Positions 4,074 through 48,346 of a stretch of 64,000 nucleotides of DNA are shown in pieces; the first letter of the stretch is position 1; each line of letters begins with the position of its first letter. The stretch comes from a bacterium (lineage in GTDB: Bacteria; Zixibacteria; MSB-5A5; WJJR01). The notes below the pieces were generated by a model. It made no database searches and was not told the origin of the DNA. It saw only the letters and a list, made by a program, of their open reading frames with translations. The stretch spans positions 10,059 to 74,058 of the forward strand of contig JAKAKI010000034.1 of assembly GCA_021813505.1 (NCBI GenBank). Direction: 5' to 3'. The translations under genes and the position numbers were made by a program.

Positions 4074-4925
4074 TTAGGGGATATCTTTGCCGGCAATCTT
4101 ATCGCGCTCGCTCATGTCGATGGGCGCGAAGTTGTCTTTGGAGAAGCTGTTCAGCACAACAATGGCAATGCGGCGATTGGCCGGGTCCTCGGGTTTGTTT
4201 AGGAAGCGGGGGTGGGTGTCGGCGAAGCCGCGAACCTCGTTGATTTTGGAGGGATCCACACCGTTTTGCTCGAGAATCCGTCGGGCGGCATTGGCACGAT
4301 CGGCCGACAATTCCCAGTTCGAGTAACTGCTACGGTTGGCGTACTGCTTGCTGTCGGTGTGCCCTTCCAGGGCGACTTTGTATCCAAGCGGTCCGATGTG
4401 GCTGGCGATCATTGAGACAGCATGGATGCCCCCGGAAGACAATTGGGCACTCCCCAGTTCGAAGAAAGTCGAGTCCCCACCCTCGGTGAGTTGAATGCGG
4501 AGGCCTTCGTCGGTGACCTGAACCTCGACGAATTTCGAGAGCTCACCCAATCCGTTGTCACCCTGCAATGCCCTGGTCAGTTCTTCCGCTTTGGCCTGGA
4601 GTTTCTCGCGCACCACCTTTTCCTGGGTTTTGCGAAAGTCCTCAGTCTCCTTCGCACTCTTGGGTGGATTGATCGCGCCGGAGGAACCCTCGAGGACGCT
4701 GCTCCCCGCCTTGTCCGCGAAGCCAACGGGATCGCGAAAATACCCGCCGACGCCCTCTTTGACCTTTTCACTCTGATTGACCAGCCACATCACCAGGAAG
4801 AACGCCATCATCGCCGTCACAAAGTCCGCGTAGGCAACCTTCCACGCACCGCCGTGATGGCCTTCGTGCGCGCCGTGCTTCTTGACGATGATGACTGGTG
4901 CCTTGTCGTCTTTTTCGGCTTCCAT
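4074..4925 (-). CDS. motB: Flagellar motor stator protein MotB (OmpA-like peptidoglycan-binding C-terminus)
   Basis: The single TM segment WKVAYADFVTAMMAFFLVMWL is the MotB signature. The C-terminal ...NRRIAIVVL... is an OmpA-like motif. The gene lies immediately downstream of motA. Confidence 0.88.
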   Translation of the reverse strand: MEAEKDDKAPVIIVKKHGAHEGHHGGAWKVAYADFVTAMMAFFLVMWLVNQSEKVKEGVGGYFRDPVGFADKAGSSVLEGSSGAINPPKSAKETEDFRKTQEKVVREKLQAKAEELTRALQGDNGLGELSKFVEVQVTDEGLRIQLTEGGDSTFFELGSAQLSSGGIHAVSMIASHIGPLGYKVALEGHTDSKQYANRSSYSNWELSADRANAARRILEQNGVDPSKINEVRGFADTHPRFLNKPEDPANRRIAIVVLNSFSKDNFAPIDMSERDKIAGKDIP

Positions 4926-4948: not shown

Positions 4949-5806
4949 TTAACCCTTGGTTGCGCGGCAGGCTTCTTCGAGCTCAGTGAATCCCGGGCGG
5001 ACGTCGCTATAGATGGAACGGCGGGCGAACTCAACGGCGATCGCCGCGACGCAGCCCTTGTGGAATGCCAACAGGACCTGCTTCAGTGCAACAAAGTAAC
5101 GGCCATTCTCTTCCGCCTTGCTGGCCAGGTTGGCGGCCAGCGGCTGAACGAAGCCGTACGACAACAGCACGCCCAGGAATGTCCCCACCAGCGCCGCGCC
5201 CACTTTGTGCCCGATTTCCTCGGCAGGACCGTCGATCGCGCCCATCGTGATGACAATGCCCAGTACGGCCGCCACGATCCCCAGACCGGGCAGAGAATCA
5301 CCGGTGGTCTGCAGCACCTTCGAGGGTTTGGTGGCTTCCTCGTGGTGCGTTTCGAGGTCGACGTCCATTAACGCGTCCAAATCGTGCGCCTGGACCCCCG
5401 ATCCGGAGATGATCAGCCGCATCGTGTCGGCCAGGAAACTCACCGCGTGATGGTTTTTCGCGAAGCTGGGATACTTGCCGATGATCGCACTGCCTTCGGG
5501 CCGTTCGATGTGACCCTCCAGGGCCATAATTCCATCGCGGCGCGCCACGGTCAGCAGTTCGTACAGCATCGAAAGCAGATCGAGATAGTCTTTTTTTGTG
5601 GGGCCGATCTTGGGCAGACTCGCCAGTTGCGAGATCATCGTCTTGAGTGTCTTGGGGCCGCTGCCAATGATCAGTGCCCCCCCTGCCGCGCCTCCGATGA
5701 TGAGGAATTCGGCGGGCTGGAAGAGGACGAGGAGCTTGCCGCCCTCCATAAGATAGCCACCGAGAATGGCGGCAATGACAATGCCGATCCCTGCAAATGC
5801 AATCAC
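4949..5806 (-). CDS. motA: Flagellar motor stator protein MotA
   Basis: The 285-aa, 4-TM protein is collinear with E. coli MotA (GGYLMxGG, YQPAE, RLIISG, ETHEE, GDSLPxFGIVAAV, MVGTFLGxLLxYGF, PIAVEF motifs). Confidence 0.9.
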   Translation of the reverse strand: MIAFAGIGIVIAAILGGYLMEGGKLLVLFQPAEFLIIGGAAGGALIIGSGPKTLKTMISQLASLPKIGPTKKDYLDLLSMLYELLTVARRDGIMALEGHIERPEGSAIIGKYPSFAKNHHAVSFLADTMRLIISGSGVQAHDLDALMDVDLETHHEEATKPSKVLQTTGDSLPGLGIVAAVLGIVITMGAIDGPAEEIGHKVGAALVGTFLGVLLSYGFVQPLAANLASKAEENGRYFVALKQVLLAFHKGCVAAIAVEFARRSIYSDVRPGFTELEEACRATKG

Positions 5807-5925
5807 GCTCTTCCTCCCGTCCGGCCGAATGGCCGGACCCTATTGGAGTATCGTCAGTTAGTGGAAGTTCTGCAGCGGTGCAGGAGATTCGGCTGCGCCC
5901 GATTAGGTGGGCGGAGCCCATCACT

Positions 5926-6031
5926 GGGAGGGCGAGGCTCCCGCCGAGCCTTGTTACCGCGCAGATACCCTTATTAACGTAAGCCACAACACCCGCGCGG
6001 CAAAGAGGCTCGGCAGGACCCTCGCCCTCCC
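5926..6031. repeat. REP-like palindromic element, copy 1 (25-nt GC-rich inverted arms around a 56-nt spacer)
   Basis: Left arm gggagggcgaggctcccgccgagcc (5926-5950) pairs with ggctcggcaggaccctcgccctccc (6007-6031) at 23/25 positions. The spacer carries an inner ccgcgc/gcgcgg sub-palindrome. Near-identical arms recur at 48277-48346. Confidence 0.6.
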
Positions 6032-6090
6032 GGTGGCGGCGTACGCCTACACAATAACTCACTATGTCGAGTCGCCGGGGTGCGTTGCCC

Positions 6091-6852
6091 TCAATACTGG
6101 GATTCGGCCTGGGGGCCCAGGATGCGGATGAAGTTGCGAAACAACTCAAGCCCCGGCCACTGTTTGTGGCGAAGCTCTTGATGATCGGCGATCCAGCGAG
6201 GGATCAGGGGTATCGGAATCAGCCGGGGCGATTCACCGCTCAACTCCGCTGTCAGCCGGGCCAGCGGAACCGTCAACGGGAGCGGCATGGGGACCTTGTC
6301 GATGTCGTTGGCGATCGGATCGACGCAGAGTTCGGCGGGAGAGGTGACGTTGTATTCGCGGCATACGACCGGGCGATGCAGATGGATGCTGCACAGTTCA
6401 TCCACCAGAAACGGGCACGCCATCCCGAGGAGAAAATACTTGCGCGCGATCGGGAGCACAGCTTCGTCGACATATTCTGGATTGAGCAGTTCATCGATCA
6501 TCTGCAATCGCTCGAGTTCGCCGGCGATTCTACTCATGCGTGACATAACTTCATCGCGGTGAGCCGGCTCAAATGAATCGATCAGATCCTGCAGGTAGAA
6601 TGCTTCCGGCGGCGAAATCGCGACCATGTGGTGGCAGCAGGCTGCGCACCGGGCACGGCAGGAAACGTGGCGTCCTGCGTGCACTTCGCGCCGATGGGCC
6701 TGGGCCACCAGAACGTTGGTCAATTCAAAAGCGGTCGGCACGAGTTCCGCCAGCCGCATCGGGCCCGTGTCGACCTCGACGCGGCCCCGCATGACGCCTT
6801 CCGGTGTCTGGAGCGTGACGGACATTAGTGCTACGCGACTGTCGCCCGTCAT
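6091..6852 (-). CDS. YkgJ/UPF0153-family Cys-cluster (putative Fe-S or zinc-binding) protein
   Basis: The cysteine cluster CRARCAACCHH (C-x3-C-x2-CC) is close to the CxxCxxCC signature of the YkgJ / flagellin N-methylase (FliB) family. The start overlaps the upstream gene by 4 bp. Confidence 0.45.
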   Translation of the reverse strand: MTGDSRVALMSVTLQTPEGVMRGRVEVDTGPMRLAELVPTAFELTNVLVAQAHRREVHAGRHVSCRARCAACCHHMVAISPPEAFYLQDLIDSFEPAHRDEVMSRMSRIAGELERLQMIDELLNPEYVDEAVLPIARKYFLLGMACPFLVDELCSIHLHRPVVCREYNVTSPAELCVDPIANDIDKVPMPLPLTVPLARLTAELSGESPRLIPIPLIPRWIADHQELRHKQWPGLELFRNFIRILGPQAESQY

Positions 6853-7613
6853 TTGGTGAATACCGGATCAAGATGCAATTGGAAGATGTGGCCGCAGTAC
6901 CGGCACCGGATTCGTTCGCCCTCCCGCCCCTGCCGCACACCCAGGCTCCGATTGCAGCCATCACAGCCGATCCATGACACGGGTTGTGAGTAGTCCACCG
7001 GTCCGCTGGGGCGGTCGAGATACTCCACCTGATGGGCAGCGTAGATGCCGGCTGCAATCGGCTGCCAGGTTGAACCTCCACCCATTGCGGCGTCGCGTTT
7101 GTGAATCGCCTCGCGATGGCTGGCGTCGCCGTGGGCGATCACATACTGGCTGACGGTTTCCCAGAAGGGAAGGCTGTCCGTCTGATCGAGGCAGGTAATC
7201 CAAAGATCGACGGCCGCATGAGGGTCACGAGAAACAACTGCCCGGCCCACGTTGAAGATTACCTCGGGATCGGAGTCCCCTCTGAACCGGCCCGCGAGCC
7301 ATTCCCGGTCACCGGGATGGAACTGAATCAGATATCCTGCTGCTTTGCCGCGTGCGGGAGCCTCAGGATTCTCCAGGGTGCGGCGGCCAAGTTCACGGAG
7401 CCTGTCATCGGCAGACCCACGGGTGAACAGCATCCAGATCATGTAACACACCGAGGGTGATGTTTCTCGCGTCAGCACATCAAGGAGCGTTCCGATCCCA
7501 TCGCTGACTTTCAGGCGCTTGCCGACAACCTCTGTCAGCAGGGCGCGTAAGCAATCGAGTTTTTCCTTTTCGTCCTTTGCATCAAGCAGGGACTCGAATT
7601 TAACCTGGCTCAC
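6849..7613 (-). CDS. Hypothetical HEAT-like repeat protein with C-terminal zinc ribbon; candidate Rhs immunity protein
   Basis: It has a 4-bp start/stop overlap with the Rhs gene. Composition is balanced and non-low-complexity. The C-terminal CDGC...CRYCGH is a zinc ribbon. The internal repeats are HEAT_2-like (DDRLRELGRR..., DSDPEVIFNVGRAV...). The immunity role is inferred from position only. Confidence 0.4.
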   Translation of the reverse strand: MSQVKFESLLDAKDEKEKLDCLRALLTEVVGKRLKVSDGIGTLLDVLTRETSPSVCYMIWMLFTRGSADDRLRELGRRTLENPEAPARGKAAGYLIQFHPGDREWLAGRFRGDSDPEVIFNVGRAVVSRDPHAAVDLWITCLDQTDSLPFWETVSQYVIAHGDASHREAIHKRDAAMGGGSTWQPIAAGIYAAHQVEYLDRPSGPVDYSQPVSWIGCDGCNRSLGVRQGREGERIRCRYCGHIFQLHLDPVFTK

Positions 7614-10600
7614 GAAGATCCCCCCGAACTACCGCCACCGCCGGAAGGATCGAGCGGCTCGAGCCTTTCGGGATTCGGGTGATCCGGTAGCGTGCTGGGC
7701 CGCTCGGGCGCACCATCGGACATGATGGGCGTATGCAGCGGCCTTTGAAAATCGTCCATTCGTCGTGTGTACTCCGGTGAATCGCGCGTTTCGCCCGGCC
7801 CGGGCTGCGGCGCAGGACCGGCGGGAGTGCCATCATCGTGGTAGTGCGTCGTCCCGGGGACACGGCTTCGTGGTTCGAGGAAAGATTGCTCATTAGGAGT
7901 CATGCCTGTCCCACCCGGTCCGAGCGGCGTACTTTCCGGTGTCGCTCCCGAATCGAAACTGCTCCGATGAACATGTGGCGGGAATCCAGCCGGCCCCATC
8001 GATTCCGCGTGCCCCCATGGATCGACGCGAACTGCGTGAGTCGTCCCATCGGCATCCCGCATCATCCAGATGCCGCTAACCTCTTCTTGATTCCCCGTCC
8101 GAGGGCTTCGGTCTGTTCCGGGGGGACGCACTTCCACATACCCTGCCGCCCGGAGCATCTCGGTGATCTCGGCATAGGTTCGATAGGCCATCGACGGGAG
8201 TTCTTGCACCGGCATCCCCGGACGCACCTCCGGCTCCTCTTCGCTGGGATGCGGGGTCGTACTGGAGCAATCATCGCTGAGCCCGGATGGATCGATCTTG
8301 CGCCAGGGATTGGACGGGTACGCGTAGATGTTGATTCCGCCTTTGAGCAGAATCGGATCGGGCTCCAGAAACCGGGCTGTTGCCGGGTCGTAGTAGCGAA
8401 ACCCGTTGTATCGCCAGCCGGTTTCACGGTCATAATATTGCCCGGGAGATCGCAGGTTGAACTCGATGCCCTGGCTCTCATCCACAATCCCTTCGCCGTA
8501 TGGCTCAGGCTCCCAGGACCAAACACAGCGCCCATCGCGATTCGTGATCGCACGGGGCAGACCGATGTCATCGGAATGAATGTAGTAGGGAACAACAACG
8601 CCGTCGCCACCCACAGCTCCCGTTTGTTCAACAAACATGAACGGCGCATTCGCGCCGTCGAGATAGAGATAGATCCTACGGTGATTGTCGTCAGAGATCT
8701 CACGCAGCAGGCGGTGCTCGTCGTACTGGAACGTGACTCTCTTGCCGTCGCACTCCTTCCACTTCCTTCGTCCCAGCGCATCGTAGCCAAAGGTGACAAT
8801 ACGGCCCTGTTCTGTCCTGACCTTCAGGAGCCGGCCGTTTCCATCATAGGAGACTTCACGGACGCCCTGCGATGTTGCGATCTGCTTCGGACAACCCCTC
8901 GAATCATAGGTGTACGTGCGGTCGTCGACACGGTTCAGGCGATTCCCAATACCGAATTCCCACGCCTTCCCGGGATTGACCACGATGTTTTCCGCCGCAT
9001 CATAACGGAAGTCGGCACGACGGCTTTCCGAACTCTGGGCGCTGATGATGCGATCCAGATCGTCGTACCCATAGGAATTGTGCGAACTGCGAAGCCAGTC
9101 GGTCTCGCGCAGACGGTTGCCGTCGGCATCGCACTTGTACTGCCGGAGAACCAACCGCTTCTGACGGTTCTCCAGCCGCTCCACCCGGTGCCACTCCAGG
9201 ACGCCCTGTGGCGTCATCGACTTAACTTCCACCCACCCGTTGGGGAAAACGTGTGAGCGCAAGTCGCCCCCCGCACCGCTGATTTCATGCTTATCACCGA
9301 GCGGATCGATCAACTCGATCGTGGCGCCCGTCGCACTGTAGGCGAACTTCGCGCTGAAGCCCTCTGACCATTCAATCTTCTCGACGTTGCCGTTAGCGCT
9401 GCGATGAAATGCCACCGACCCTTCGCGACATTCGATCATTGCCGGCTTGCCGTGACGGTCGTACTTGGTCTTGATGTCATCGCCGTCGTTCGTGGCCTTG
9501 ACAACACGCCCACAGGCATCTGGCACGAACTCGGCGGTGCAGGCCCCCGCCGGCTCTTCTTTGATCTTGAACCTTCCCGGCCCGTATTCGCGACGGACAA
9601 GTATTGCCCCATCGCCGTCATACACCTCTTTGACATTCCAATCGGCGTCGAAAATACGGCGGGAAAAAGGCGTCTGATCGAGGGTGATCACCGCCGGCCG
9701 GTCTTTGTGATCCCGTTCAAATTCGGTCTGATGCCCTGCACCATCGACGACCTTCACCATCTCATCGGCTCGATTGAATGAATAGCGGATGGTCTGGCCG
9801 TTGGGAGCACGCGTGGCGACACACTTGTTCCACGATGAGTATTCGTAGCGCCGGGTGCGGCCCCGTGGATCGGTATCCGATGTGAGATTCCCCTCGGCGT
9901 CATACTGCCGCTTCGATTGCGATCCATCCGGGAAGGTGATCTCAAGGAGACGGCCCAAATCGTCGAAGCGATACCGCATCCGACGGTCCCCCTCCCGCCG
10001 TTCAATGATCCTCCCCCAATCGTCATAGCGGAAGGCGGTGAGAAGCGCACCGGGGTCATTGAAGATGGCGATGAGCCGGCCCCCGTCATCGTAGCGGAGA
10101 TTGGTCGCCTTGCCACTCGGATCGATCTTTCGGGAGAGACGATTTCGGGAATCGTATTCGTAGAGCGTCACATCGCCGGACGGGCTCATCTCGCCGTCCA
10201 GGTTCCCCCGATGATCGTAGGACCATTTCGTCGTGTTTCCGTCCGGGTCAGTCTCTTCGATCTTCAGGTTCAGGTCGTTGTAGGCGCGCTTGGTGGTTCC
10301 GCCAAAGGGGTTGGTCTCTTCAACGACATTCCCGAAATCATCATACTTGTACTTCCTGGTGCTCCCCGTCTCGTCGACTTCGGCGACTTTATTGCCGGCT
10401 TTGTCGTACTCGAAGACCTGGACCCCGCCATATGGATCCATGCGCGAGGTGATCAGTCCACGCTCGTCGTAACGATAGATAATCTTGCCGCCGGTGGGCG
10501 AATGCAGAATGGTAATGCTCGCCGGAGGCAGATACTCTACCGTACCGGCATACAGGTCATCGTCACCGCGCGACTTGATGCAGCGGCCGTCACGGTCATA

Positions 10601-12019
10601 GGCATAATGGAACGAGTATCCGTTGCGGTCGGTCTTGCGCGTCATTTGGTGCTTGTCATCGTAGGTGTACTTGTACCGCCTGCCCACCGCATCAATGACC
10701 GCCACCATGTCGCCGTGGTCGTCGTATTCGTAGGCCACCAGCGGCCGGAGCTTGCCGTCACTGCAGGCCAGCGCGAGGCGGGTGATGCGGCCGTCGGTGT
10801 GCGACTCGACTTTGATTCTCTGCCCGGTGGAATGTACGATCTCGTGCAGCCGTCCTTTGGGGTCGTAGCGGAATCCGATCGCCTCACCGGCGCGGTTCGA
10901 GAGGCGTGCGATCCACGCCTGGTCTGATTTCGGTAGTCGCACGAACTGCGCGGTCATACCGTCGATCCCGCTTACGGTGAATTGAGTCGCGGACTGTCTC
11001 GTCAGCGTGAGTTTTTCGAACGGCAGAAATTCAGACCCGCCATCCTTCTCGATGACCGGGAAGACAATCGACCGATTCTGTTCGTTGTGATAGACGATTG
11101 TCGCATGATGGAATTCCAGCCAGCGCTGATACTGGTGGCTCCAGTTCCAACCCAGCGGACCATCCGTCCCCAGAGTGTTGGCATAATACCGCTTCCAGGA
11201 AAGCTGAAGAGGCCCACCGATTTCGAAATCTGTCTTGTCCTCGAAGTTCGAGCCGGAGACGAGATCAATTGGCTCGAGTCCCAGCCGGCAGCGATTGCGG
11301 TCAATGAACCTGCCGGCCGCCTTCGATCCGGCATAGCCGGCGGCTGCCGTGATCGCGTTGGTGACGAATGCCTCGACCAGTTGCGCAAAGGTCATCCCAA
11401 CCTGGACGTGTGAAAACGCGATCACTGTGGCATTGGGAACGATCGGAATCTCGGAGCAGGACGCGCCTCCCAGGGGAACTCCCAAGGCCATTGATCCGCC
11501 ATTGACCGACACGGTCGGCGAGCCGATGGCGGTGTTCCCTTCGGCGCCAGGCAAAGGGATCGGCGGAATAAGCATCTGCGCCCATGTCTGCCACATCGTG
11601 AACGGCTGGAAGGCACCGGTGATGCCATCCCACACCGCTTTCGAGGACGAGACCTGGGGATCGGTTAACGACGATGCGATTCCTTTGACCACACCGATCA
11701 TGATATTGGCTGCGAGAGTGAAGAGGGTCACGAAGCCGACGGTGATGAGATTAGTGATGTACCAGACTTTGAAGGTGACCTTCGGAATATCGACCCACGT
11801 TCCCTGGGGAATGTGGATCGAGTACCCTTTGGCGCCGGAGCAGCACGCGGGACTGCCGTTGATCATCACATTGGACATCGGGAACTTCGGCGACGTCCAG
11901 AGCATGAGCACGCCGACAAACGGATGCGGATTGAGTGGAACGGGCGGAATCGCGGTCGAATGCGCATCAATCCCGATCAGCATCGTGTTGCCGGTCGTGC
12001 ATGCTGGGAAAAGCGGCAT
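7610..12019 (-). CDS. rhs: T6SS effector: N-terminal PAAR-like (DUF4150) domain, TM helices, Rhs/YD-repeat cage and a C-terminal variable region
   Basis: There are many YD repeats (RYDDGGRL, YDAEGNL, YEYDxxxR...). The Rhs core ends with GQYYDRETGWRYNGFRYYDPATARFLEPDPI...NIYAYPSNPWRKIDPSGL. The N-terminus MLIGIDAHSTAIPPVPL...VMINGSPACCSG is PAAR-like, followed by hydrophobic helices. The gene lies immediately downstream of vgrG and DUF2169. Confidence 0.9.
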   Translation of the reverse strand: MPLFPACTTGNTMLIGIDAHSTAIPPVPLNPHPFVGVLMLWTSPKFPMSNVMINGSPACCSGAKGYSIHIPQGTWVDIPKVTFKVWYITNLITVGFVTLFTLAANIMIGVVKGIASSLTDPQVSSSKAVWDGITGAFQPFTMWQTWAQMLIPPIPLPGAEGNTAIGSPTVSVNGGSMALGVPLGGASCSEIPIVPNATVIAFSHVQVGMTFAQLVEAFVTNAITAAAGYAGSKAAGRFIDRNRCRLGLEPIDLVSGSNFEDKTDFEIGGPLQLSWKRYYANTLGTDGPLGWNWSHQYQRWLEFHHATIVYHNEQNRSIVFPVIEKDGGSEFLPFEKLTLTRQSATQFTVSGIDGMTAQFVRLPKSDQAWIARLSNRAGEAIGFRYDPKGRLHEIVHSTGQRIKVESHTDGRITRLALACSDGKLRPLVAYEYDDHGDMVAVIDAVGRRYKYTYDDKHQMTRKTDRNGYSFHYAYDRDGRCIKSRGDDDLYAGTVEYLPPASITILHSPTGGKIIYRYDERGLITSRMDPYGGVQVFEYDKAGNKVAEVDETGSTRKYKYDDFGNVVEETNPFGGTTKRAYNDLNLKIEETDPDGNTTKWSYDHRGNLDGEMSPSGDVTLYEYDSRNRLSRKIDPSGKATNLRYDDGGRLIAIFNDPGALLTAFRYDDWGRIIERREGDRRMRYRFDDLGRLLEITFPDGSQSKRQYDAEGNLTSDTDPRGRTRRYEYSSWNKCVATRAPNGQTIRYSFNRADEMVKVVDGAGHQTEFERDHKDRPAVITLDQTPFSRRIFDADWNVKEVYDGDGAILVRREYGPGRFKIKEEPAGACTAEFVPDACGRVVKATNDGDDIKTKYDRHGKPAMIECREGSVAFHRSANGNVEKIEWSEGFSAKFAYSATGATIELIDPLGDKHEISGAGGDLRSHVFPNGWVEVKSMTPQGVLEWHRVERLENRQKRLVLRQYKCDADGNRLRETDWLRSSHNSYGYDDLDRIISAQSSESRRADFRYDAAENIVVNPGKAWEFGIGNRLNRVDDRTYTYDSRGCPKQIATSQGVREVSYDGNGRLLKVRTEQGRIVTFGYDALGRRKWKECDGKRVTFQYDEHRLLREISDDNHRRIYLYLDGANAPFMFVEQTGAVGGDGVVVPYYIHSDDIGLPRAITNRDGRCVWSWEPEPYGEGIVDESQGIEFNLRSPGQYYDRETGWRYNGFRYYDPATARFLEPDPILLKGGINIYAYPSNPWRKIDPSGLSDDCSSTTPHPSEEEPEVRPGMPVQELPSMAYRTYAEITEMLRAAGYVEVRPPGTDRSPRTGNQEEVSGIWMMRDADGTTHAVRVDPWGHAESMGPAGFPPHVHRSSFDSGATPESTPLGPGGTGMTPNEQSFLEPRSRVPGTTHYHDDGTPAGPAPQPGPGETRDSPEYTRRMDDFQRPLHTPIMSDGAPERPSTLPDHPNPERLEPLDPSGGGGSSGGSS

Positions 12020-12022
12020 AAC

Positions 12023-13135
12023 TCAGGCATCCCCGACGATGACGTCCATGCGGGTCATATCCACGAAATCGGGACGGCCATCGTAGATTACGGCCCCGCG
12101 CCACACCAAATCGACAACCATCTGTTCGCCGAAGATCGCCACCGTATGGAGAACCACCGGCGGCTTTTCGGGTCCCTTGCCCCAGTCGATGGAAATGACG
12201 GGCGTCATTCCCGGGAGATTAAACGACAGTTCTCCCGACGGTTCGAGATTGCGCAACTGGATTGGCTCGTCGCCTTTGAGGTACGGGACTGCCAGACCTA
12301 CAGAGGCTCCGTTGAAGAGCCGAAAATCCAGCATCGGCAATTTCAATTTCTTCTGCGCTTCGACTTGGTCCTTCTGAACAACACCCAATGTCATCTCGTG
12401 CAGCTCTTCGTACATCGGCATGTACGCCGGCAGCACTCCAGCGAAACTCGCGCGTGGGTACCAGCCAAGCCCGAACCAGCTCAGCCCGGCGGGCATCGGT
12501 TGCTTGTGCCACTTCTCGATCGACCCGGTTATCAGACGCTGAGGAGTCAGCAGGTCCTGCGGGTCCTCGAAATTGGGAAGTGCCAGACCATCGACGGCTT
12601 CTTTGGTGTTCCTCACCACAAAGCCCGTCCCGATGAAGTTCCGGGCATACGCCATCGGCACTTTGGGATCGGCGTGAATGTCCACGCCGCCATAGGCGCG
12701 TTCATAGCGCAGATCGATGGATTGAAAGGGCGCGGGATTGGTGAAGATCGGTATGCCGGCACTGTTGAATGCACAGCGCCGTTCGCCGAACGCCGCGATT
12801 GTCTTCTGATGATTGCCGACTCGCAGCGACGCGATACACTGTGTGGCGGGTTTGCCCGCGGGAGCGTACACCTTGCCGGTAAACACGACATCGGTGAGTG
12901 GCTTATACGGGTACAAATCGGTTTCGATCTCAATTGAACCGATCATGGGATCGTTCTTCTCGTAGTAGCGCGTGGCCTGGGTCAACGGCGATTGCTCTGG
13001 CACCGGCTTGCAGACCGCCTTGGGTTCAATCTTGAATCGGCGTTTGGCGAGAACGGAGAAGATCGTCTTGCCATCCGGGTCAGAGCCGGGGAGCATCACG
13101 AATGCGTAGATATCGTCAGGTTTGCTTGCCGCCAT
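12023..13135 (-). CDS. DUF2169-family T6SS effector adaptor/chaperone
   Basis: A ~370-aa protein between vgrG and a PAAR-like effector, the position occupied by DUF2169 adaptors such as Atu3641 in the Agrobacterium vgrG2-tde2 module. The sequence is ...YERAYGGVD.../...LSWFGLGWYPRASF.... Confidence 0.75.
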   Translation of the reverse strand: MAASKPDDIYAFVMLPGSDPDGKTIFSVLAKRRFKIEPKAVCKPVPEQSPLTQATRYYEKNDPMIGSIEIETDLYPYKPLTDVVFTGKVYAPAGKPATQCIASLRVGNHQKTIAAFGERRCAFNSAGIPIFTNPAPFQSIDLRYERAYGGVDIHADPKVPMAYARNFIGTGFVVRNTKEAVDGLALPNFEDPQDLLTPQRLITGSIEKWHKQPMPAGLSWFGLGWYPRASFAGVLPAYMPMYEELHEMTLGVVQKDQVEAQKKLKLPMLDFRLFNGASVGLAVPYLKGDEPIQLRNLEPSGELSFNLPGMTPVISIDWGKGPEKPPVVLHTVAIFGEQMVVDLVWRGAVIYDGRPDFVDMTRMDVIVGDA

Positions 13136-13167
13136 TTGGCTGATCCTCTGCTGGTGAAGACTGCCGA

Positions 13168-15339
13168 TTATGGATTCAGCAGAATCATCCCGCCTTTAAT
13201 TGTGTTGGAGGCCTGCGCGGTTGATGAGACCATGGCACCCGAGGTATCGTTGGCGGTGGTGGCCTTCGACTGAATAGTCTGACCCTCGATCTTTACACCT
13301 GCGGTACTGATCGTGATCGTGCCCCCGGCGCCCTTGATCTCAACCGTTCCGTCGAGCTTCATAGTGAGTTCGCTGCCACCGCATTTGACGTGAAACTTGT
13401 CGGATTGAACCGTGATATCGTAGGGGCCCTTGATATTGTCCGTCTTGGTTCCCGTCAGCACGTTGAGCGCTTCATTCCCGGTGTTGACGTTGACGGTACG
13501 GTTGCCCGTGAGAATGTTGAGTTCGTCGTTACCGGTGTTGACGTTCACGGTCCGGTTGCCTGTCAGGACATTGTGCTCGTCATTGCCGGTGTTGACGTTG
13601 ATAGTGCGATTCCCGGTGTGAACCGTGACCTTCTCGTTTCCATCCTGGATGTCCTCGGTACGATCTCCCTTGATCGTAATTGTCTCTTTGCCGTTGACCG
13701 TTTCCGTGCGGTCGTTGGTCACCGTGGTCGTTTCGTCATGTGTAACCGTCTTGGTGCGGTCGTGGCCGATCGAGAGCGACTCGTCGTGGCCCGTGGATTG
13801 GTTCTTGTCGTTGACGGTTGTGATCGTCAGGTTCTTCTGGGCATGCTGGTAGATCTCCTCGGAACCTTTCTTGTCCTCGAATCGGTATTCGTTGAAACCA
13901 CCGTGGCCCTTGGTGGAATCCGACTTGATCGTGCTCTTGGTCTTTTCCTGATCCAGCGGGTAGGGCGGCATGTTGTCGCCATTGTAGATGCGCCCGACGA
14001 TGATCGGCCGGTCGGGATCCCCTTCGAGAAAATCTACGATGACTTCGTGGCCGATCCGAGGAATCCACATCGCTCCCCAACTGGCACCCGCCCAGAGCTG
14101 GGAAACACGAATCCAGCAGGATGATTTTTCATTGCGCTGTCCTTCGCGATCCCACGGGAACTGCACTTTGACGCGGCCGTATTTGTCGACGTAAATCTCC
14201 TCACCGGACGGCCCGGTCACGACAGCGGTCTGTGTACCCTCAACCACCGGCTTGGTCGTCTTTCGCACAGGACGGTATGGCGTGTTCGAGGGAATGCACT
14301 GGAAACGATTGTCATAGGTGAACCGGCCGCTGGCATCATCCTGCCCCAGTGGCTGGGTGCCGACATGCCGCACCGAGATCAGCAGATATTCCTGGTTGAA
14401 CGAATTGCGCGTGTAGTCGGCGAGCGTGAATTTGTACCCCGGCACGAGCCGGCGGCAAACGCTCTGCCCTTCACCCAGCAGCCGTTTTGCCTGGGATGAT
14501 TCCAGACGTATCCGGGTGAGCTCGGCGCCGGTCCCCTCGTCCATGTAGAGTCCGGGAAACTCGTAGACTTCGAGTGCGGGATCGCGGTCCGCCGCCTGGT
14601 TCTTGGTCAGGTCGAGTGTCGGCCGCTCGAAGTTGTAGTCGCGCAGGACGGACGTGCCGGACTTGATCTGCTGCGAATAGCGGAAGTCGTAGATAAATTC
14701 CTCGGCTTCGACCGCTCCCGACGGATCGCGGAAGACGACATCACTGGCGCCGTCGATGGGGACATAGACATCGCTCGAATCGGCCATCACCAGGACTTCT
14801 TTGCCTTCCTGATGTTCGAAGAAGTAGAAGATCCCCTCCTCTTCGAGAAGCCGGGAGATGAAGTTCCAGTCACTCTCGCGGTACTGCACACAGTAATCGC
14901 GCTTCACATAGTTTGTCCGCTGCAGGGCAAACCGGAAATAGTCGGATTGGATTTCTGCGTCGGTCAGTACCTGTTCGACGATCTCCTTGACAGTCTTTTC
15001 CTGAAAGATCCGGCTCTTGGAGCGCTGGGTGAGCAGCCACACCCGGGGCACGAATTCGGCGTAATACGGAGTGAACGTCTCACCGGCGACCCCTTGCTCG
15101 AACCGGCTGACAATGCCGTAGATGGATCGCGTACCGTCCTCGTAGTTGATGTCCAGTTGTGCGGGGATTCCGACGATGGCATCCAGATCGATTTCGCCAT
15201 CACGCGCCGCGAGCTCGATTTTGAAACTGAACAGCTCGCTCATCCCTTCCGTGCCGTTGACACGCAGGACGCGCAACTCATCGGAATAACCGTCGGACTC
15301 GAACGTGAAGATCGATTCATCGGAAAGCAGGCTAGGCAT
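13168..15339 (-). CDS. vgrG: T6SS spike protein VgrG (TssI)
   Basis: The N-terminal gp27-like region is followed by a gp5-like region (...VSQLWAGASWGAMWIPRIGHEVIVDFLEGDPDRPIIVGRIYNGDNMPPY...). The C-terminal beta-helix has tandem TGNRTVNVNTGNDExNxL repeats. There is no C-terminal effector extension. Confidence 0.95.
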   Translation of the reverse strand: MPSLLSDESIFTFESDGYSDELRVLRVNGTEGMSELFSFKIELAARDGEIDLDAIVGIPAQLDINYEDGTRSIYGIVSRFEQGVAGETFTPYYAEFVPRVWLLTQRSKSRIFQEKTVKEIVEQVLTDAEIQSDYFRFALQRTNYVKRDYCVQYRESDWNFISRLLEEEGIFYFFEHQEGKEVLVMADSSDVYVPIDGASDVVFRDPSGAVEAEEFIYDFRYSQQIKSGTSVLRDYNFERPTLDLTKNQAADRDPALEVYEFPGLYMDEGTGAELTRIRLESSQAKRLLGEGQSVCRRLVPGYKFTLADYTRNSFNQEYLLISVRHVGTQPLGQDDASGRFTYDNRFQCIPSNTPYRPVRKTTKPVVEGTQTAVVTGPSGEEIYVDKYGRVKVQFPWDREGQRNEKSSCWIRVSQLWAGASWGAMWIPRIGHEVIVDFLEGDPDRPIIVGRIYNGDNMPPYPLDQEKTKSTIKSDSTKGHGGFNEYRFEDKKGSEEIYQHAQKNLTITTVNDKNQSTGHDESLSIGHDRTKTVTHDETTTVTNDRTETVNGKETITIKGDRTEDIQDGNEKVTVHTGNRTINVNTGNDEHNVLTGNRTVNVNTGNDELNILTGNRTVNVNTGNEALNVLTGTKTDNIKGPYDITVQSDKFHVKCGGSELTMKLDGTVEIKGAGGTITISTAGVKIEGQTIQSKATTANDTSGAMVSSTAQASNTIKGGMILLNP
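13447..13608 (-). repeat. In-frame 3 x 54-nt tandem repeat encoding the VgrG beta-helix (TGNRTxNVNTGNDExNxL x3)
   Basis: Three consecutive 54-nt units share ...ggtgttgacgtt.... This is a coding repeat, not a CRISPR array. Confidence 0.7.
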
Positions 15340-32751: not shown

Positions 32752-33300
32752 TTACCGGGCCTTCTTGATGAAATCTCTGCCGACCTCAATCTTCACGCGT
32801 TGCTCGGTCTTCTTGGGAATGTTCAATGCCAGCCGCTCCTGGGCGACGCCGGCCGACCGGTAGAAGTCGGCAATGGCGCACAAAACCGGCTTTGCCTTTT
32901 TGACCTTAAAGTAATTTCCCTCCAGCTCCACGGTGGCTGTCCCTGAGGGGCTTACGATGACGCTGCCGCTGTCCAGGATGTCATTGCCGAGCACCGAGGC
33001 AAGCTGGTCGTGGTACGAGGGATTGAAGAAGACATCCTTATCGGTCCCGGTGAATCCCGCGGTGCTGGTCAACAGATACACTTTGACCCGGATCGTATGG
33101 GCCGAGTTGCCGTCGAAGTTCAAATCGGACGTCCCGTTGAGAACGACTTCGACGTGCATGGGCTTTTCCTGCTTGCCAAACAGCCAGCCGCATCCGGAGA
33201 TGGAAGTCAAAATCAAAATGCCAAGGCATGCAGTGGCGAACCTAGCTCCGATCCAGCGGCGCGTTGCCGGGCGCCTACCCTCATTGACAGTCAGGCTCAT
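32752..33300 (-). CDS. tssJ: T6SS outer-membrane lipoprotein TssJ
   Basis: Signal peptide with lipobox LTSISGC, ~180 aa. The gene is first in the J-K-L-M order. Confidence 0.78.
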   Translation of the reverse strand: MSLTVNEGRRPATRRWIGARFATACLGILILTSISGCGWLFGKQEKPMHVEVVLNGTSDLNFDGNSAHTIRVKVYLLTSTAGFTGTDKDVFFNPSYHDQLASVLGNDILDSGSVIVSPSGTATVELEGNYFKVKKAKPVLCAIADFYRSAGVAQERLALNIPKKTEQRVKIEVGRDFIKKAR

Positions 33301-34082
33301 TGATCCCCCTTGCCGGATGAGTGTTGATCCCCCTGCCGGGACTTCATTTTCGCGAGCATCACTTCACGATATCCCCGGCGGAATACAGGACGAAACAGCT
33401 TTTCGAACTGCCCGGTATCCTCGGATACCAGTTCTTGATAGCGCCTCTGATACTCTTTCCACAAGAGCAAATTCCGAAACGGATTCAGCCGCCGGAACAG
33501 GTTCGCGCCCCCATCCCCTTCTTTGCCAATGACTTCAGAACGGATCGTCTCCGGGGCCAGGGTGCGCAGGACCTCCAGGGTCCCCTCGCGGCTGCTTTGC
33601 TCGTAGCCGGCCAGGAGCGCCAACTGGTGGTATTTCAATTCGTCAATAGCGGCGCGCAGTTCTTTGATCTGGGTGTCATCGAGCGACGTCGATTTCCAAT
33701 CGAACAGGCGGCGCAGCATGTCCTGAAAATTCTCAGAACGCCATACGCGCGTCGCTGAGTCGGCCGCTGCGCGATCAAGGCCGAAGTCTTTCTGGAAGCT
33801 CTTGCGTCCCGATAAGAGTTCACGGAATTCCTGGATCAGGACATCGATCCCGTGGACAATGCGCTCGCAGAATGCGCGAATCTGGTCGGGATTCTCCAGC
33901 GCGGCCTCCTCGCCGGAGAAGCGATGCGCGAGACGTTCCAGGTAGTGCAATGCGGTCCGGTTCAATTCGAGCTGCTGCCGGAGACGGGCATTTTCCTCGC
34001 GCAATTTCTCGACTTCGCCGGTTCCACCGGCACTCACCTCGTCCATGGTTTTCCCTGTCTCCGAGCTCTTGCGATTTCGCAT
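33297..34082 (-). CDS. Hypothetical coiled-coil protein, first gene of the T6SS operon (possible accessory/regulatory component)
   Basis: A 261-aa, charged, heptad-rich protein (EVEKLREENARLRQQLELNRTALHYLERL...). Its stop overlaps the tssJ start by 4 bp. The upstream intergenic region carries a palindromic operator-like site. I recognise no family. Confidence 0.45.
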   Translation of the reverse strand: MRNRKSSETGKTMDEVSAGGTGEVEKLREENARLRQQLELNRTALHYLERLAHRFSGEEAALENPDQIRAFCERIVHGIDVLIQEFRELLSGRKSFQKDFGLDRAAADSATRVWRSENFQDMLRRLFDWKSTSLDDTQIKELRAAIDELKYHQLALLAGYEQSSREGTLEVLRTLAPETIRSEVIGKEGDGGANLFRRLNPFRNLLLWKEYQRRYQELVSEDTGQFEKLFRPVFRRGYREVMLAKMKSRQGDQHSSGKGDQ

Positions 34083-36094: not shown

Positions 36095-37399
36095 TCAGGT
36101 CCGAAAGAGAACGGACTCACGTTCGAATATTCGTGTGGTCACAAAGAGCATGAACGCCGCGTACAGCGCCGTGGTGCCGAATACCGCAAAGAGCTGTGCC
36201 GGCTTGGCGATTCCCAGAAGAACCTCCTTAAGCGCCAAACAGAGATTGACGACAGGGACGAAAGTCAGCGCCCAATTCAGTTCGATACCGGGTACGAACG
36301 AAATCATGGCCGGCATGATGACCACCATCAAAAGCGGTGTCGCGTAGCTCTGCGCCTCCTTGTAGCTGCGGGCGGAGATCGACAGAACAACCAGAAGTGA
36401 AGCGAACAGGATCGCCATCGGAATCATCAAAAACAGGATCCATCCGAGCGTGGCGCCCGGCATCGAGAACGAGATGGCGCCGCCCTCTTCGGCCATCTGG
36501 GCCATGCCCCACTTCATACTGACCGTCATGGAGGTCATCGAGAGCAACATAGTGACGAATCCAGCGGTCAGCACGGTGAGGAATTTCCCCAATGCCAGAT
36601 GCCATCGCGCCACCGGCGCGGCCAGCAGGGTCTCCAGCGTGTTGCGTTCCTTTTCCCCGGCGGTAATGTCCATGGCCGGATACATCCCGCCGGTCATGGT
36701 GAGAATCATGAGCATGTACGGTAACATCATCGCCATGAACCGCCCCGCCTGCTTCGACTTGGGAGCGACGTCCTGTGAGGCCACCCAGAATGGCTGGAGT
36801 GTCCGGCGATTGGTTCCGAACGCGGCGAGGCGCCGCTCGATCAGCGAATCGTTGAGTGCCCGGCCCCATTCCCGGATGTGGTCTCCTGCGGCGTCGGATT
36901 TGATATCCGCGCCGTCGATGAAGACACCCAAGACGAGCGAGTCGTTACCCGTGCCGGAGGCGGGCACGTCCGGGGGCACCTCGACAACGGCTTGAATCCA
37001 TTTCTTGGAAATCGCTTTGTAGTAGATACGCGCTTTCTCTCCGTGCGGAATCCTGGTCGGATCACCGGCGAAGATCCTGTCAATCGTCTCGGAATTCAAA
37101 GTCGTGTCGATCCGCGCTTCCGCCAGAAGAAGCGTGTGGATCGAGTCTGCCGAAACGATGCGCACGCTTGTATCCGCCGCCAGCGAGGCCCGCATCGAGG
37201 GAGCCGCGCCGGCCGGAAGCAGCATGACCGGCTGGCGTTCCGCCCGCGTCTTCTCGATCTGGGAGGCAATCACCCGGCCAAGGCCCATGGTCAGCAATGG
37301 ATAGAAAAGCAGGGGGACGATCACCATCGAGATGATCGTGCGGCGGTCGCGCAGGATGTCTTTGATCTCTTTGAAGAAGACCGTCAGCGTGCCGTTCAT
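36095..37399 (-). CDS. ABC-2 family transporter permease (NatB-like)
   Basis: A 434-aa protein with an N-terminal TM helix, a large extracytoplasmic loop and C-terminal TM bundle. Its start overlaps the upstream ATPase gene by 4 bp. Confidence 0.7.
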   Translation of the reverse strand: MNGTLTVFFKEIKDILRDRRTIISMVIVPLLFYPLLTMGLGRVIASQIEKTRAERQPVMLLPAGAAPSMRASLAADTSVRIVSADSIHTLLLAEARIDTTLNSETIDRIFAGDPTRIPHGEKARIYYKAISKKWIQAVVEVPPDVPASGTGNDSLVLGVFIDGADIKSDAAGDHIREWGRALNDSLIERRLAAFGTNRRTLQPFWVASQDVAPKSKQAGRFMAMMLPYMLMILTMTGGMYPAMDITAGEKERNTLETLLAAPVARWHLALGKFLTVLTAGFVTMLLSMTSMTVSMKWGMAQMAEEGGAISFSMPGATLGWILFLMIPMAILFASLLVVLSISARSYKEAQSYATPLLMVVIMPAMISFVPGIELNWALTFVPVVNLCLALKEVLLGIAKPAQLFAVFGTTALYAAFMLFVTTRIFERESVLFRT

Positions 37400-48276: not shown

Positions 48277-48346
48277 GGGAGGGCAAGGCTCCTGCCGAGC
48301 CTTTTCGCCGCGCGGAAACATGGCTCGGCAGGAGCCTCGCCCTCCC
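48277..48346. repeat. REP-like palindromic element, copy 2 (25-nt arms, 20-nt loop)
   Basis: gggagggcaaggctcctgccgagcc (48277-48301) pairs with ggctcggcaggagcctcgccctccc (48322-48346) with 1 mismatch. The loop ttttcgccgcgcggaaacat contains a cgccgcgcgg palindrome. The arms are >90% identical to copy 1 at 5926-6031. Confidence 0.6.

Follow-up and report, generated by a model that had tools for sequence, protein, structure and literature searches.

Comparison of relative loci separates a putative immunity gene from a probable secretion-system accessory gene downstream of a type VI Rhs effector in Zixibacteria

Do the two genes that follow an Rhs effector gene at the end of a type VI secretion system (T6SS) cluster belong to the toxin, to each other or to something else? 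The question is raised by a 64,000-nucleotide stretch of a Zixibacteria genome (assembly GCA_021813505.1, contig JAKAKI010000034.1, positions 10,059 to 74,058; hereafter the window), in which the effector gene overlaps a gene that we call gene A, and gene A overlaps a gene that we call gene B. An initial annotation of this DNA proposed that A and B might form a two-protein immunity or accessory unit specific to the toxin, or that B, which carries a YkgJ-like cysteine cluster, might be tied to the neighbouring motAB genes. The comparison of relative loci led to another reading, which we consider probable: gene A would be the cognate immunity protein of an unclassified toxin domain at the C-terminus of the Rhs protein, and gene B would be a T6SS accessory factor outside this cassette.

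The window carries a complete T6SS cluster on its minus strand, in the order FHA_C, TssJ, TssK, DotU, TssM, TagF, TssA, TssB, TssC, Hcp, TssF, TssG, ClpV, VgrG, DUF2169, Rhs, A, B. Rhs, gene A and gene B form its distal end. The coordinates, overlaps and motifs given for these genes in the initial annotation were all as described, and the start codons of A and B agreed with the N-termini of their homologs in alignments. Identical loci were present in two metagenome-assembled genomes (MAGs), GCA_027349185.1 and GCA_027457245.1. The features on which the argument depends are as follows.

13168-15339, minus strand: VgrG, which together with DUF2169 makes up the loading module upstream of Rhs (module 12023-15339)
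12023-13135, minus strand: DUF2169 adaptor, between VgrG and Rhs
7610-12019, minus strand: Rhs effector open reading frame (ORF), 1469 amino acids (aa)
8237-12019, minus strand: Rhs N-terminal region, DUF6531, RHS/YD repeats and Rhs-associated core (aa 1-1261), conserved across loci with different toxin tips
7610-8236, minus strand: Rhs C-terminal toxin domain (aa 1262-1469), unclassified family, with a Pro/Gly-rich tail
6849-7613, minus strand: gene A, 254 aa, GTG start, putative cognate immunity protein of the Rhs C-terminal toxin
6091-6852, minus strand: gene B, 253 aa, ATG start, last gene of the T6SS cluster
7610-7613, minus strand: GTGA overlap of the Rhs stop codon (TGA at 7610-7612) and the A start codon (GTG start at 7613)
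6849-6852, minus strand: ATGA overlap of the A stop codon (TGA at 6849-6851) and the B start codon (ATG at 6852)

For comparison, 101 relative loci with 11,819 ORFs in all were fetched and given L-numbers. In one of them, L012, the toxin tip and gene A were exchanged together. The BLASTP alignment of its Rhs protein with that of the window stopped at amino acid 1261, the tip beyond was unrelated, and an unrelated 133-aa ORF stood in the place of A. DUF2169, B and MotA were nevertheless retained there, with 86%, 78% and 87% identity to the window. The toxin tip was 60-67% identical to that of the window in L013 and L001. The 133-aa ORF gave no usable Pfam or NCBIfam match, and neither did two other ORFs that are described below, of 123 aa in L001 and of 197 aa in L015.

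A hidden Markov model (HMM) of the toxin domain, built from the three closest tips only, had no significant match outside these source tips except in ORFs directly upstream of A-like genes. The homologs came in different formats: a tip fused to Rhs in L095 (1e-11), a separate 160-aa ORF following Rhs in L098 and L099 (3.6e-7), and a free-standing 154-aa ORF in an island with VgrG and DUF4123 in L100 and L101 (1.8e-4). A toxin homolog lay directly upstream in every locus with a relative of A and readable upstream sequence. The gene downstream of the toxin and on the same strand was A, or its relative, in the window, L001, L013, L095, L098/L099 and L100/L101. Across the 101 loci, the matches to the A family and to the toxin family coincided locus by locus with the sole exception of L097, a 1.5-kb contig in which the upstream ORF is cut to 94 residues. 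The initial annotation had linked both A and B to Rhs C-terminal regions. Co-occurrence bore this out for A, with its toxin homolog upstream, and not for B, which did not follow the toxin.

Gene A also diverged faster than its flanks. It was 40-59% identical where DUF2169 was 73-92% and MotA 82-96% identical; between the window and L095, for example, identity was 87% for DUF2169, 87% for MotA, 72% for B and only 40% for A. Because the tip and A were swapped together, the toxin HMM matched ORFs upstream of A, the two families co-occurred and A diverged fast, we regard the toxin domain and A as a probable cognate pair. The initial annotation had placed A in the immunity position; the comparative data (the L012 swap, the toxin HMM and the co-occurrence) agree with this and indicate an immunity protein whose cognate toxin is the unclassified C-terminal domain of Rhs. 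The tip and A would move and diverge together as a single cassette. A is predicted to be a cytoplasmic alpha-solenoid, to which a zinc ribbon is an optional addition. It presumably protects the producer and its sister cells by binding the toxin domain and thereby blocking it.

The Rhs protein had the features of a T6SS Rhs effector: RHS/YD repeats (RHS_repeat, 1.4e-72), DUF6531 (2.4e-19), an Rhs-associated core (TIGR03696 Rhs_assc_core at aa 1173-1247), vgrG and an adaptor gene upstream, and a location within a T6SS cluster. Its C-terminal domain in the window had no Pfam match, with the Tox and Ntox models included, and no usable NCBIfam match. A word-indexed homolog search with the tip found a single fragment. 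An alignment of six sequences of the domain showed invariant GY, RxD, HxH, DxG and HxP residues.

Two parts of the Rhs protein were unusual in composition or content. At aa ~1355-1469 (7610-7950), the compact toxin core is followed by a Pro/Gly-rich, low-complexity tail of ~110 aa, which ends in a poly-Gly/Ser run and keeps the DxG and LHTPI / THxP motifs common to the stand-alone toxin homologs. At the other end, aa 1-250 (11270-12019) directly follow DUF2169, at the place where one would expect a PAAR-like loading domain. No Pfam family matched this region, which contains the hydrophobic stretch VWYITNLITVGFVTLFTLAANIMIGVV.

The initial annotation had recognized no immunity family in gene A, and none was found: A matched no Pfam family at E<=1, with HEAT_2 (PF13646) and the Imm models included, except for zinc-ribbon noise, and no NCBIfam family. 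Of the HEAT_2-like repeats and the CxxC ribbon that had been proposed for it, the ribbon was confirmed, and the repeats were seen at the level of the fold only, the Pfam HEAT_2 profile giving no match. In the AlphaFold2 model of A (pLDDT 82), 11 helices form an alpha-solenoid, after which comes a four-strand ribbon (aa 212-245). Foldseek comparison of the model with PDB gave only generic HEAT, ARM and alphaRep neighbours, at E>=0.03. PDB sequence-profile searches with the alignments of A, B and the toxin gave nothing significant; the matches were weak, to PASTA-like, alphaRep and AglX zinc-ribbon sequences at E>=0.015. No transmembrane segment was predicted in A. The cysteines of the ribbon, C217xxC220...C237xxC240, were invariant in five homologs.

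6879-6980, minus strand: CxxC...CxxC zinc-ribbon module of gene A (aa 212-245), accessory

The A family is rare, with 5 clusters in an index of 5.8 billion proteins and 56 representatives found by exhaustive HMMER search. It has two forms, one of ~250 aa with the ribbon and one of ~200 aa without it, and because of these shorter relatives the ribbon can be regarded as accessory. A 256-aa gene after B in L010 was tested as a distant relative of A and rejected.

The 4-bp overlaps had been taken to imply that A and B are co-translated with the effector, which over-reads a common operon feature. In the window, TssJ and FHA_C also overlap by 4 bp (33297-33300), and so do the two genes of an ABC-transporter pair (37396-37399). 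In the orthologous loci, the Rhs/A junction was a 1-bp overlap (L013), a 36-bp gap (L001) or a 118-bp gap (L095), and the A/B junction was a 110-bp gap in L095 and was interrupted by an extra gene in L001. Since such overlaps are common in the window and not conserved in the orthologous loci, they are best read as the mark of an operon and not of a special tie to the effector. The extra gene in L001 (10808-11179) encodes 123 aa with an N-terminal hydrophobic segment and has an ATGA overlap with B; it matched no Pfam family, and nothing in the window corresponds to it. A promoter and terminator scan of positions 5600-8000 found neither a sigma-70-like site nor a convincing terminator separating Rhs, A and B. 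In the composition profile, the toxin/immunity cassette was not marked by a GC anomaly.

Gene B was a YkgJ-type cysteine-cluster protein, as had been predicted from its C-x3-C-x2-CC motif. Residues 65-170 matched PF03692 with 31.7 bits (gathering score 23; E 2.5e-7). In an alignment of 39 full-length sequences, 49-76% identical to B, seven of the eight cysteines listed below (C65, C69, C72, C73, C146, C154 and C164) were invariant, and C176 was present in at least 90%.

6325-6660, minus strand: Cys-cluster region of gene B (aa 65-176), C65x3C69x2C72C73, C146, C154, C164 and C176

Relatives of B, annotated as "YkgJ family cysteine cluster protein", were present in at least 587 species-level genomes, and B was 50-78% identical across phyla; its closest named relative was from a Candidatus Zixiibacteriota MAG. 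In profile and in the signature cysteine cluster, B resembles the proteins known as YkgJ, UPF0153 or PF03692 ("putative zinc- or iron-chelating domain"). It differs from them in forming a distinct full-length subfamily of ~250 aa, with N- and C-terminal extensions conserved across phyla, and in a T6SS-cluster context that we did not find described in the literature. We infer that B is a cytoplasmic metal-binding protein (Fe-S or Zn).

Gene B did not depend on the toxin or on A for its presence. Apart from its retention in L012, it was kept in L015, which has no Rhs gene and the order DUF2169, a 197-aa ORF, B, MotA. In L018 and L038, B stood beside Rhs proteins that the toxin model did not match. 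No A-like or toxin-like ORF was found in the ~80 B loci outside the lineage of the window, and the A-like genes of L098-L101, outside that lineage, had no B neighbour. The 197-aa ORF in L015 (458-1048; a Zixibacteria MAG) takes the place of Rhs after DUF2169 and had no Pfam match, which suggests that this position holds another small protein there, either cargo or spike.

The company that B keeps is instead the T6SS. All ORFs within 8 kb of B were clustered without prior labels in 85 loci, and Pfam confirmed the names given to the clusters. Recurrent among the neighbours were TssA, TssB, TssC, TssE, TssF, TssK, TssM, DotU, Hcp, ClpV, VgrG, DUF2169, TagJ, Ser/Thr kinases and PP2C phosphatases. 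A T6SS core gene was present within 8 kb of B in 30 of the 85 loci. Among the 46 loci outside the lineage of the window that were well flanked (at least 4 kb on both sides of B), 16 had one (binomial p<=3.6e-10 against an assumed 5% background). T6SS-linked B genes were found in Planctomycetota, Acidobacteriota, Desulfobacterales/Deltaproteobacteria, Myxococcota, Ignavibacteria, Zixibacteria, Sumerlaeia and Gammaproteobacteria MAGs.

The gene order around B varied with the group. In Planctomycetota, B was internal to the cluster (TssA-TssB-TssC-Hcp-TagJ-B-TssE-TssF-ClpV). In Acidobacteriota, deltaproteobacteria and Myxococcota, the layout was kinase-B-(U256)-fused TssBC...TssK-DotU-TssM, with U256 being a conserved 256-aa protein that has no Pfam match; one deltaproteobacterium had the order Hcp-B-U256-TssBC, with B again internal. 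In Zixibacteria, Ignavibacteria and Desulfobacterales, the layout was VgrG-DUF2169-(effector)-B. The fused sheath subunit joins VipA (TssB) and VipB (the N-terminal part of TssC) in one protein of ~500-577 aa, often beside U256; examples are in L010 (8596-10329), L074 (5498-6997) and other T6SS-like clusters with B relatives in Acidobacteriota and deltaproteobacteria.

From this synteny, B is likely to be a T6SS-associated accessory gene that is independent of the toxin, and we infer from the same pattern a role in T6SS function. The initial annotation had noted that the T6SS has no known immunity or accessory component of the YkgJ type. The literature agrees, as far as our incomplete search went: no paper was found linking YkgJ, PF03692 or COG0727 proteins with the T6SS. 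The genomic data go the other way, with the B subfamily associated with T6SS clusters. In being non-core and recurrently embedded in T6SS clusters, B resembles the T6SS accessory ("Tag") proteins TagF, TagJ/ImpE and PpkA/PppA/FHA, and in many loci it lies beside TagJ, Ser/Thr kinases or PP2C. It is unrelated to these proteins in sequence.

Some partners of B hint at an activity. A PKMT-type S-adenosylmethionine methyltransferase, with the domains Methyltransf_12, MethyTransf_Reg (PF10119) and PKMT_2nd (PF21782), was fused or adjacent to B in 10 loci. Fusions were found in L064, L067 and L068, and the B domain of the L064 fusion aligned with residues 5-252 of B from the window. A Ser/Thr kinase or a PP2C phosphatase was near B in 14 loci. 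A second type of methyltransferase (MTS, DUF7059 and a DUF7782/PqqD-like C-terminus) also occurs beside or fused with B relatives, at L062 8506-9987, L085 5988-7463, L067 5155-7572 and L076 3699-5231.

Two precedents for such a combination are known. FliB, the flagellin lysine-N-methyltransferase of Salmonella, has a Cys motif holding a 4Fe-4S cluster that is required for methylation of flagellin lysines (PMC8598068). PKMT enzymes methylate lysines of exported surface proteins (PMC8232902, PMC11784438). FliB resembles B in a CxnCxnCC-type N-terminal Cys motif, in having eight conserved cysteines and in being cytoplasmic. FliB is encoded with the secretion machine whose substrate it modifies, and relatives of B are fused to lysine methyltransferases inside T6SS clusters. 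The sequence likeness is one of Cys motif type, and there is no flagellin gene near B. Rickettsia PKMT1/2 and Acinetobacter KmtA have the same domain set as the methyltransferase fused or adjacent to B relatives (PMC8232902, PMC11784438); their substrates are autotransporters, and neither a YkgJ domain nor a location in T6SS clusters has been reported for them.

B may be a cytoplasmic Fe-S or Zn accessory factor in post-translational modification or regulation of the T6SS apparatus or its cargo. Given the PKMT fusions and the precedents of FliB and the PKMT enzymes, protein methylation would be the most plausible biochemical theme; this is the weakest step of the argument, and an activity of B in methylation is put forward only tentatively, by analogy. 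Given its kinase and PP2C neighbours, a regulatory or redox-sensing role is the main alternative.

Other explanations of the two genes have to be weighed against this evidence. A role of A as adaptor or chaperone of the effector, or as a regulator by way of its zinc ribbon, could be argued from the generic binding properties of alpha-solenoid proteins, from its predicted cytoplasmic location and from the failure to match a known Imm family. It is improbable since A follows the toxin domain through three delivery modules (Rhs with DUF2169, the split Rhs, and VgrG with DUF4123) instead of following any one of them, lies directly downstream of the toxin when a dedicated adaptor, DUF2169, is already encoded upstream, and diverges fast along with the toxin. 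The idea that A and B together are a two-protein immunity or accessory unit dedicated to this Rhs toxin finds its basis in the window and in L013, where the two are adjacent on the same strand with overlapping stop and start codons, and in the close relatives L001, L013 and L095, where both are downstream of this Rhs. The wider set of loci makes such a unit very improbable: B was retained at 78% identity despite the swap of toxin and A in L012, occurred without Rhs in L015 and with Rhs proteins outside the toxin model in L018 and L038, and was unaccompanied by A-like or toxin-like ORFs in the ~80 loci outside the lineage, and relatives of A occurred without B in L098-L101. An identity of 50-78% across phyla is also unlike that of fast-evolving immunity genes.

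A functional place for B in the motAB operon, where it might for instance serve the flagellum as FliB does or be related to the stator, was suggested by motA and motB following B in the window and its close relatives, and by FliB being a flagellar protein with a similar Cys-cluster motif. This adjacency was confined to one lineage. MotA adjoined B in 5 of the 85 loci, all in the lineage of the window, and in none of the 46 well-flanked loci elsewhere; flagellin and other flagellar genes were not found near B, motAB alone being present, in that one lineage. In the window B shares an overlap with A, and 284 bp with a large hairpin lie between B and motA, so the proposed tie to motAB is hardly credible. 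The remaining explanation is that B is a housekeeping Fe-S or Zn protein without a T6SS function, which owes its position to historical synteny or hitch-hiking. It fits the terminal position of B in the cluster of the window, the ~60% of well-flanked loci that have no T6SS gene within 8 kb, and the fact that in our literature search no described T6SS needed such a protein. We think it unlikely since B is found with T6SS genes again and again in several phyla, in gene orders that differ and that in some cases place it inside the cluster, between hcp/tagJ and tssE, since the association far exceeds any plausible background, and since the fusion to or adjacency with a PKMT methyltransferase recurs specifically inside T6SS clusters.

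Several points weigh against our reading of A as an immunity protein and B as a T6SS accessory factor. The sequence data all came from MAGs and metagenomes. For the A family, ~6 independent loci were sampled for context among 56 representatives in all. With regard to the toxin, the C-terminal domain of the window had no match to Tox-HNH-EHHH, and the L098 homolog reached 14.8 bits (cutoff 25; E 0.036), a sub-threshold match of one homolog that is only a lead to a possible toxin activity. The background rate in the binomial test was an assumption. The absence of T6SS genes inside 8 kb in ~60% of well-flanked loci would mean that the B family is not exclusively T6SS-linked or has paralogous roles. 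The Cys spacing of B, CX3CX2CC, is not the CX4CX3CC of FliB. A PKMT methyltransferase, a kinase, a PP2C phosphatase and U256 were sought as partners within the 64-kb window and not found, and because no such partner is present there, the methylation theme may not apply in the window.

The genes beyond B on the motAB side, and the interval between, are listed here.

4949-5806, minus strand: motA, a lineage-specific neighbour, not part of the unit
4074-4925, minus strand: motB, a lineage-specific neighbour, not part of the unit
5925-6032, no strand: long and very stable palindromic hairpin (fold z-score -7.4) resembling a repetitive extragenic palindromic (REP) element, in the 284 bp that separate gene B from motA

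The arms of the hairpin, of ~45 nt each (GGGAGGGCGAGGCTCC...GCCGAGCC), recur as a second inverted pair at 48277-48346. It looks like a repeated palindromic element of the REP type or of the miniature inverted-repeat transposable element (MITE) type, and with it the T6SS transcription unit region comes to an end. An Rfam search of the gap between B and motA gave only a sub-threshold, spurious miRNA match. At the other end of the cluster, the first gene (33297-34082) matched T6SS_FHA_C only, with no FHA domain detectable. The cluster encodes TagF, yet a Ser/Thr kinase and a phosphatase were not found in the 64-kb window.

Rhs polymorphic-toxin/immunity cassettes, and helical-repeat immunity proteins of the HEAT type ("Imm-HEAT"), are established (Zhang et al. 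2012, PMC3482391). The locus in the window agrees with the Rhs cassettes in having VgrG and DUF2169 upstream, a DPxGL-type Rhs-associated core and a variable tip, and in having the immunity gene directly downstream of the tip with the two exchanged as one. Like Imm-HEAT, A is an all-alpha repeat protein, a likeness of fold judged against the published description only. The differences are that the toxin tip and A have no Pfam match and that A has an extra zinc ribbon, absent from its ~200-aa relatives. The toxin/A pair is therefore a new but ordinary pair of the established Rhs cassette kind. It adds one unclassified toxin domain (RxD, HxH, HxP) and one putative helical-repeat immunity family, a useful and incremental addition.

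Gene B is the more interesting product of the comparison, being conserved across phyla, without a structural neighbour in PDB, repeatedly present in T6SS clusters and sometimes fused to a methyltransferase. The T6SS association of this subfamily and its PKMT fusions appear to be undescribed. A functional link between B and the T6SS would suggest that components or cargo of this machine are modified post-translationally, a layer that is essentially unexplored for it. It is possible, if doubtful, that the B subfamily represents an unrecognized and widespread T6SS accessory module that, alone as in the window or with PKMT-type methyltransferases or Ser/Thr kinases, modifies (most plausibly by methylation) or gates the tube, spike or effector. 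If this were true, B would be the T6SS counterpart of FliB acting on flagellin and of the PKMT enzymes acting on autotransporters.

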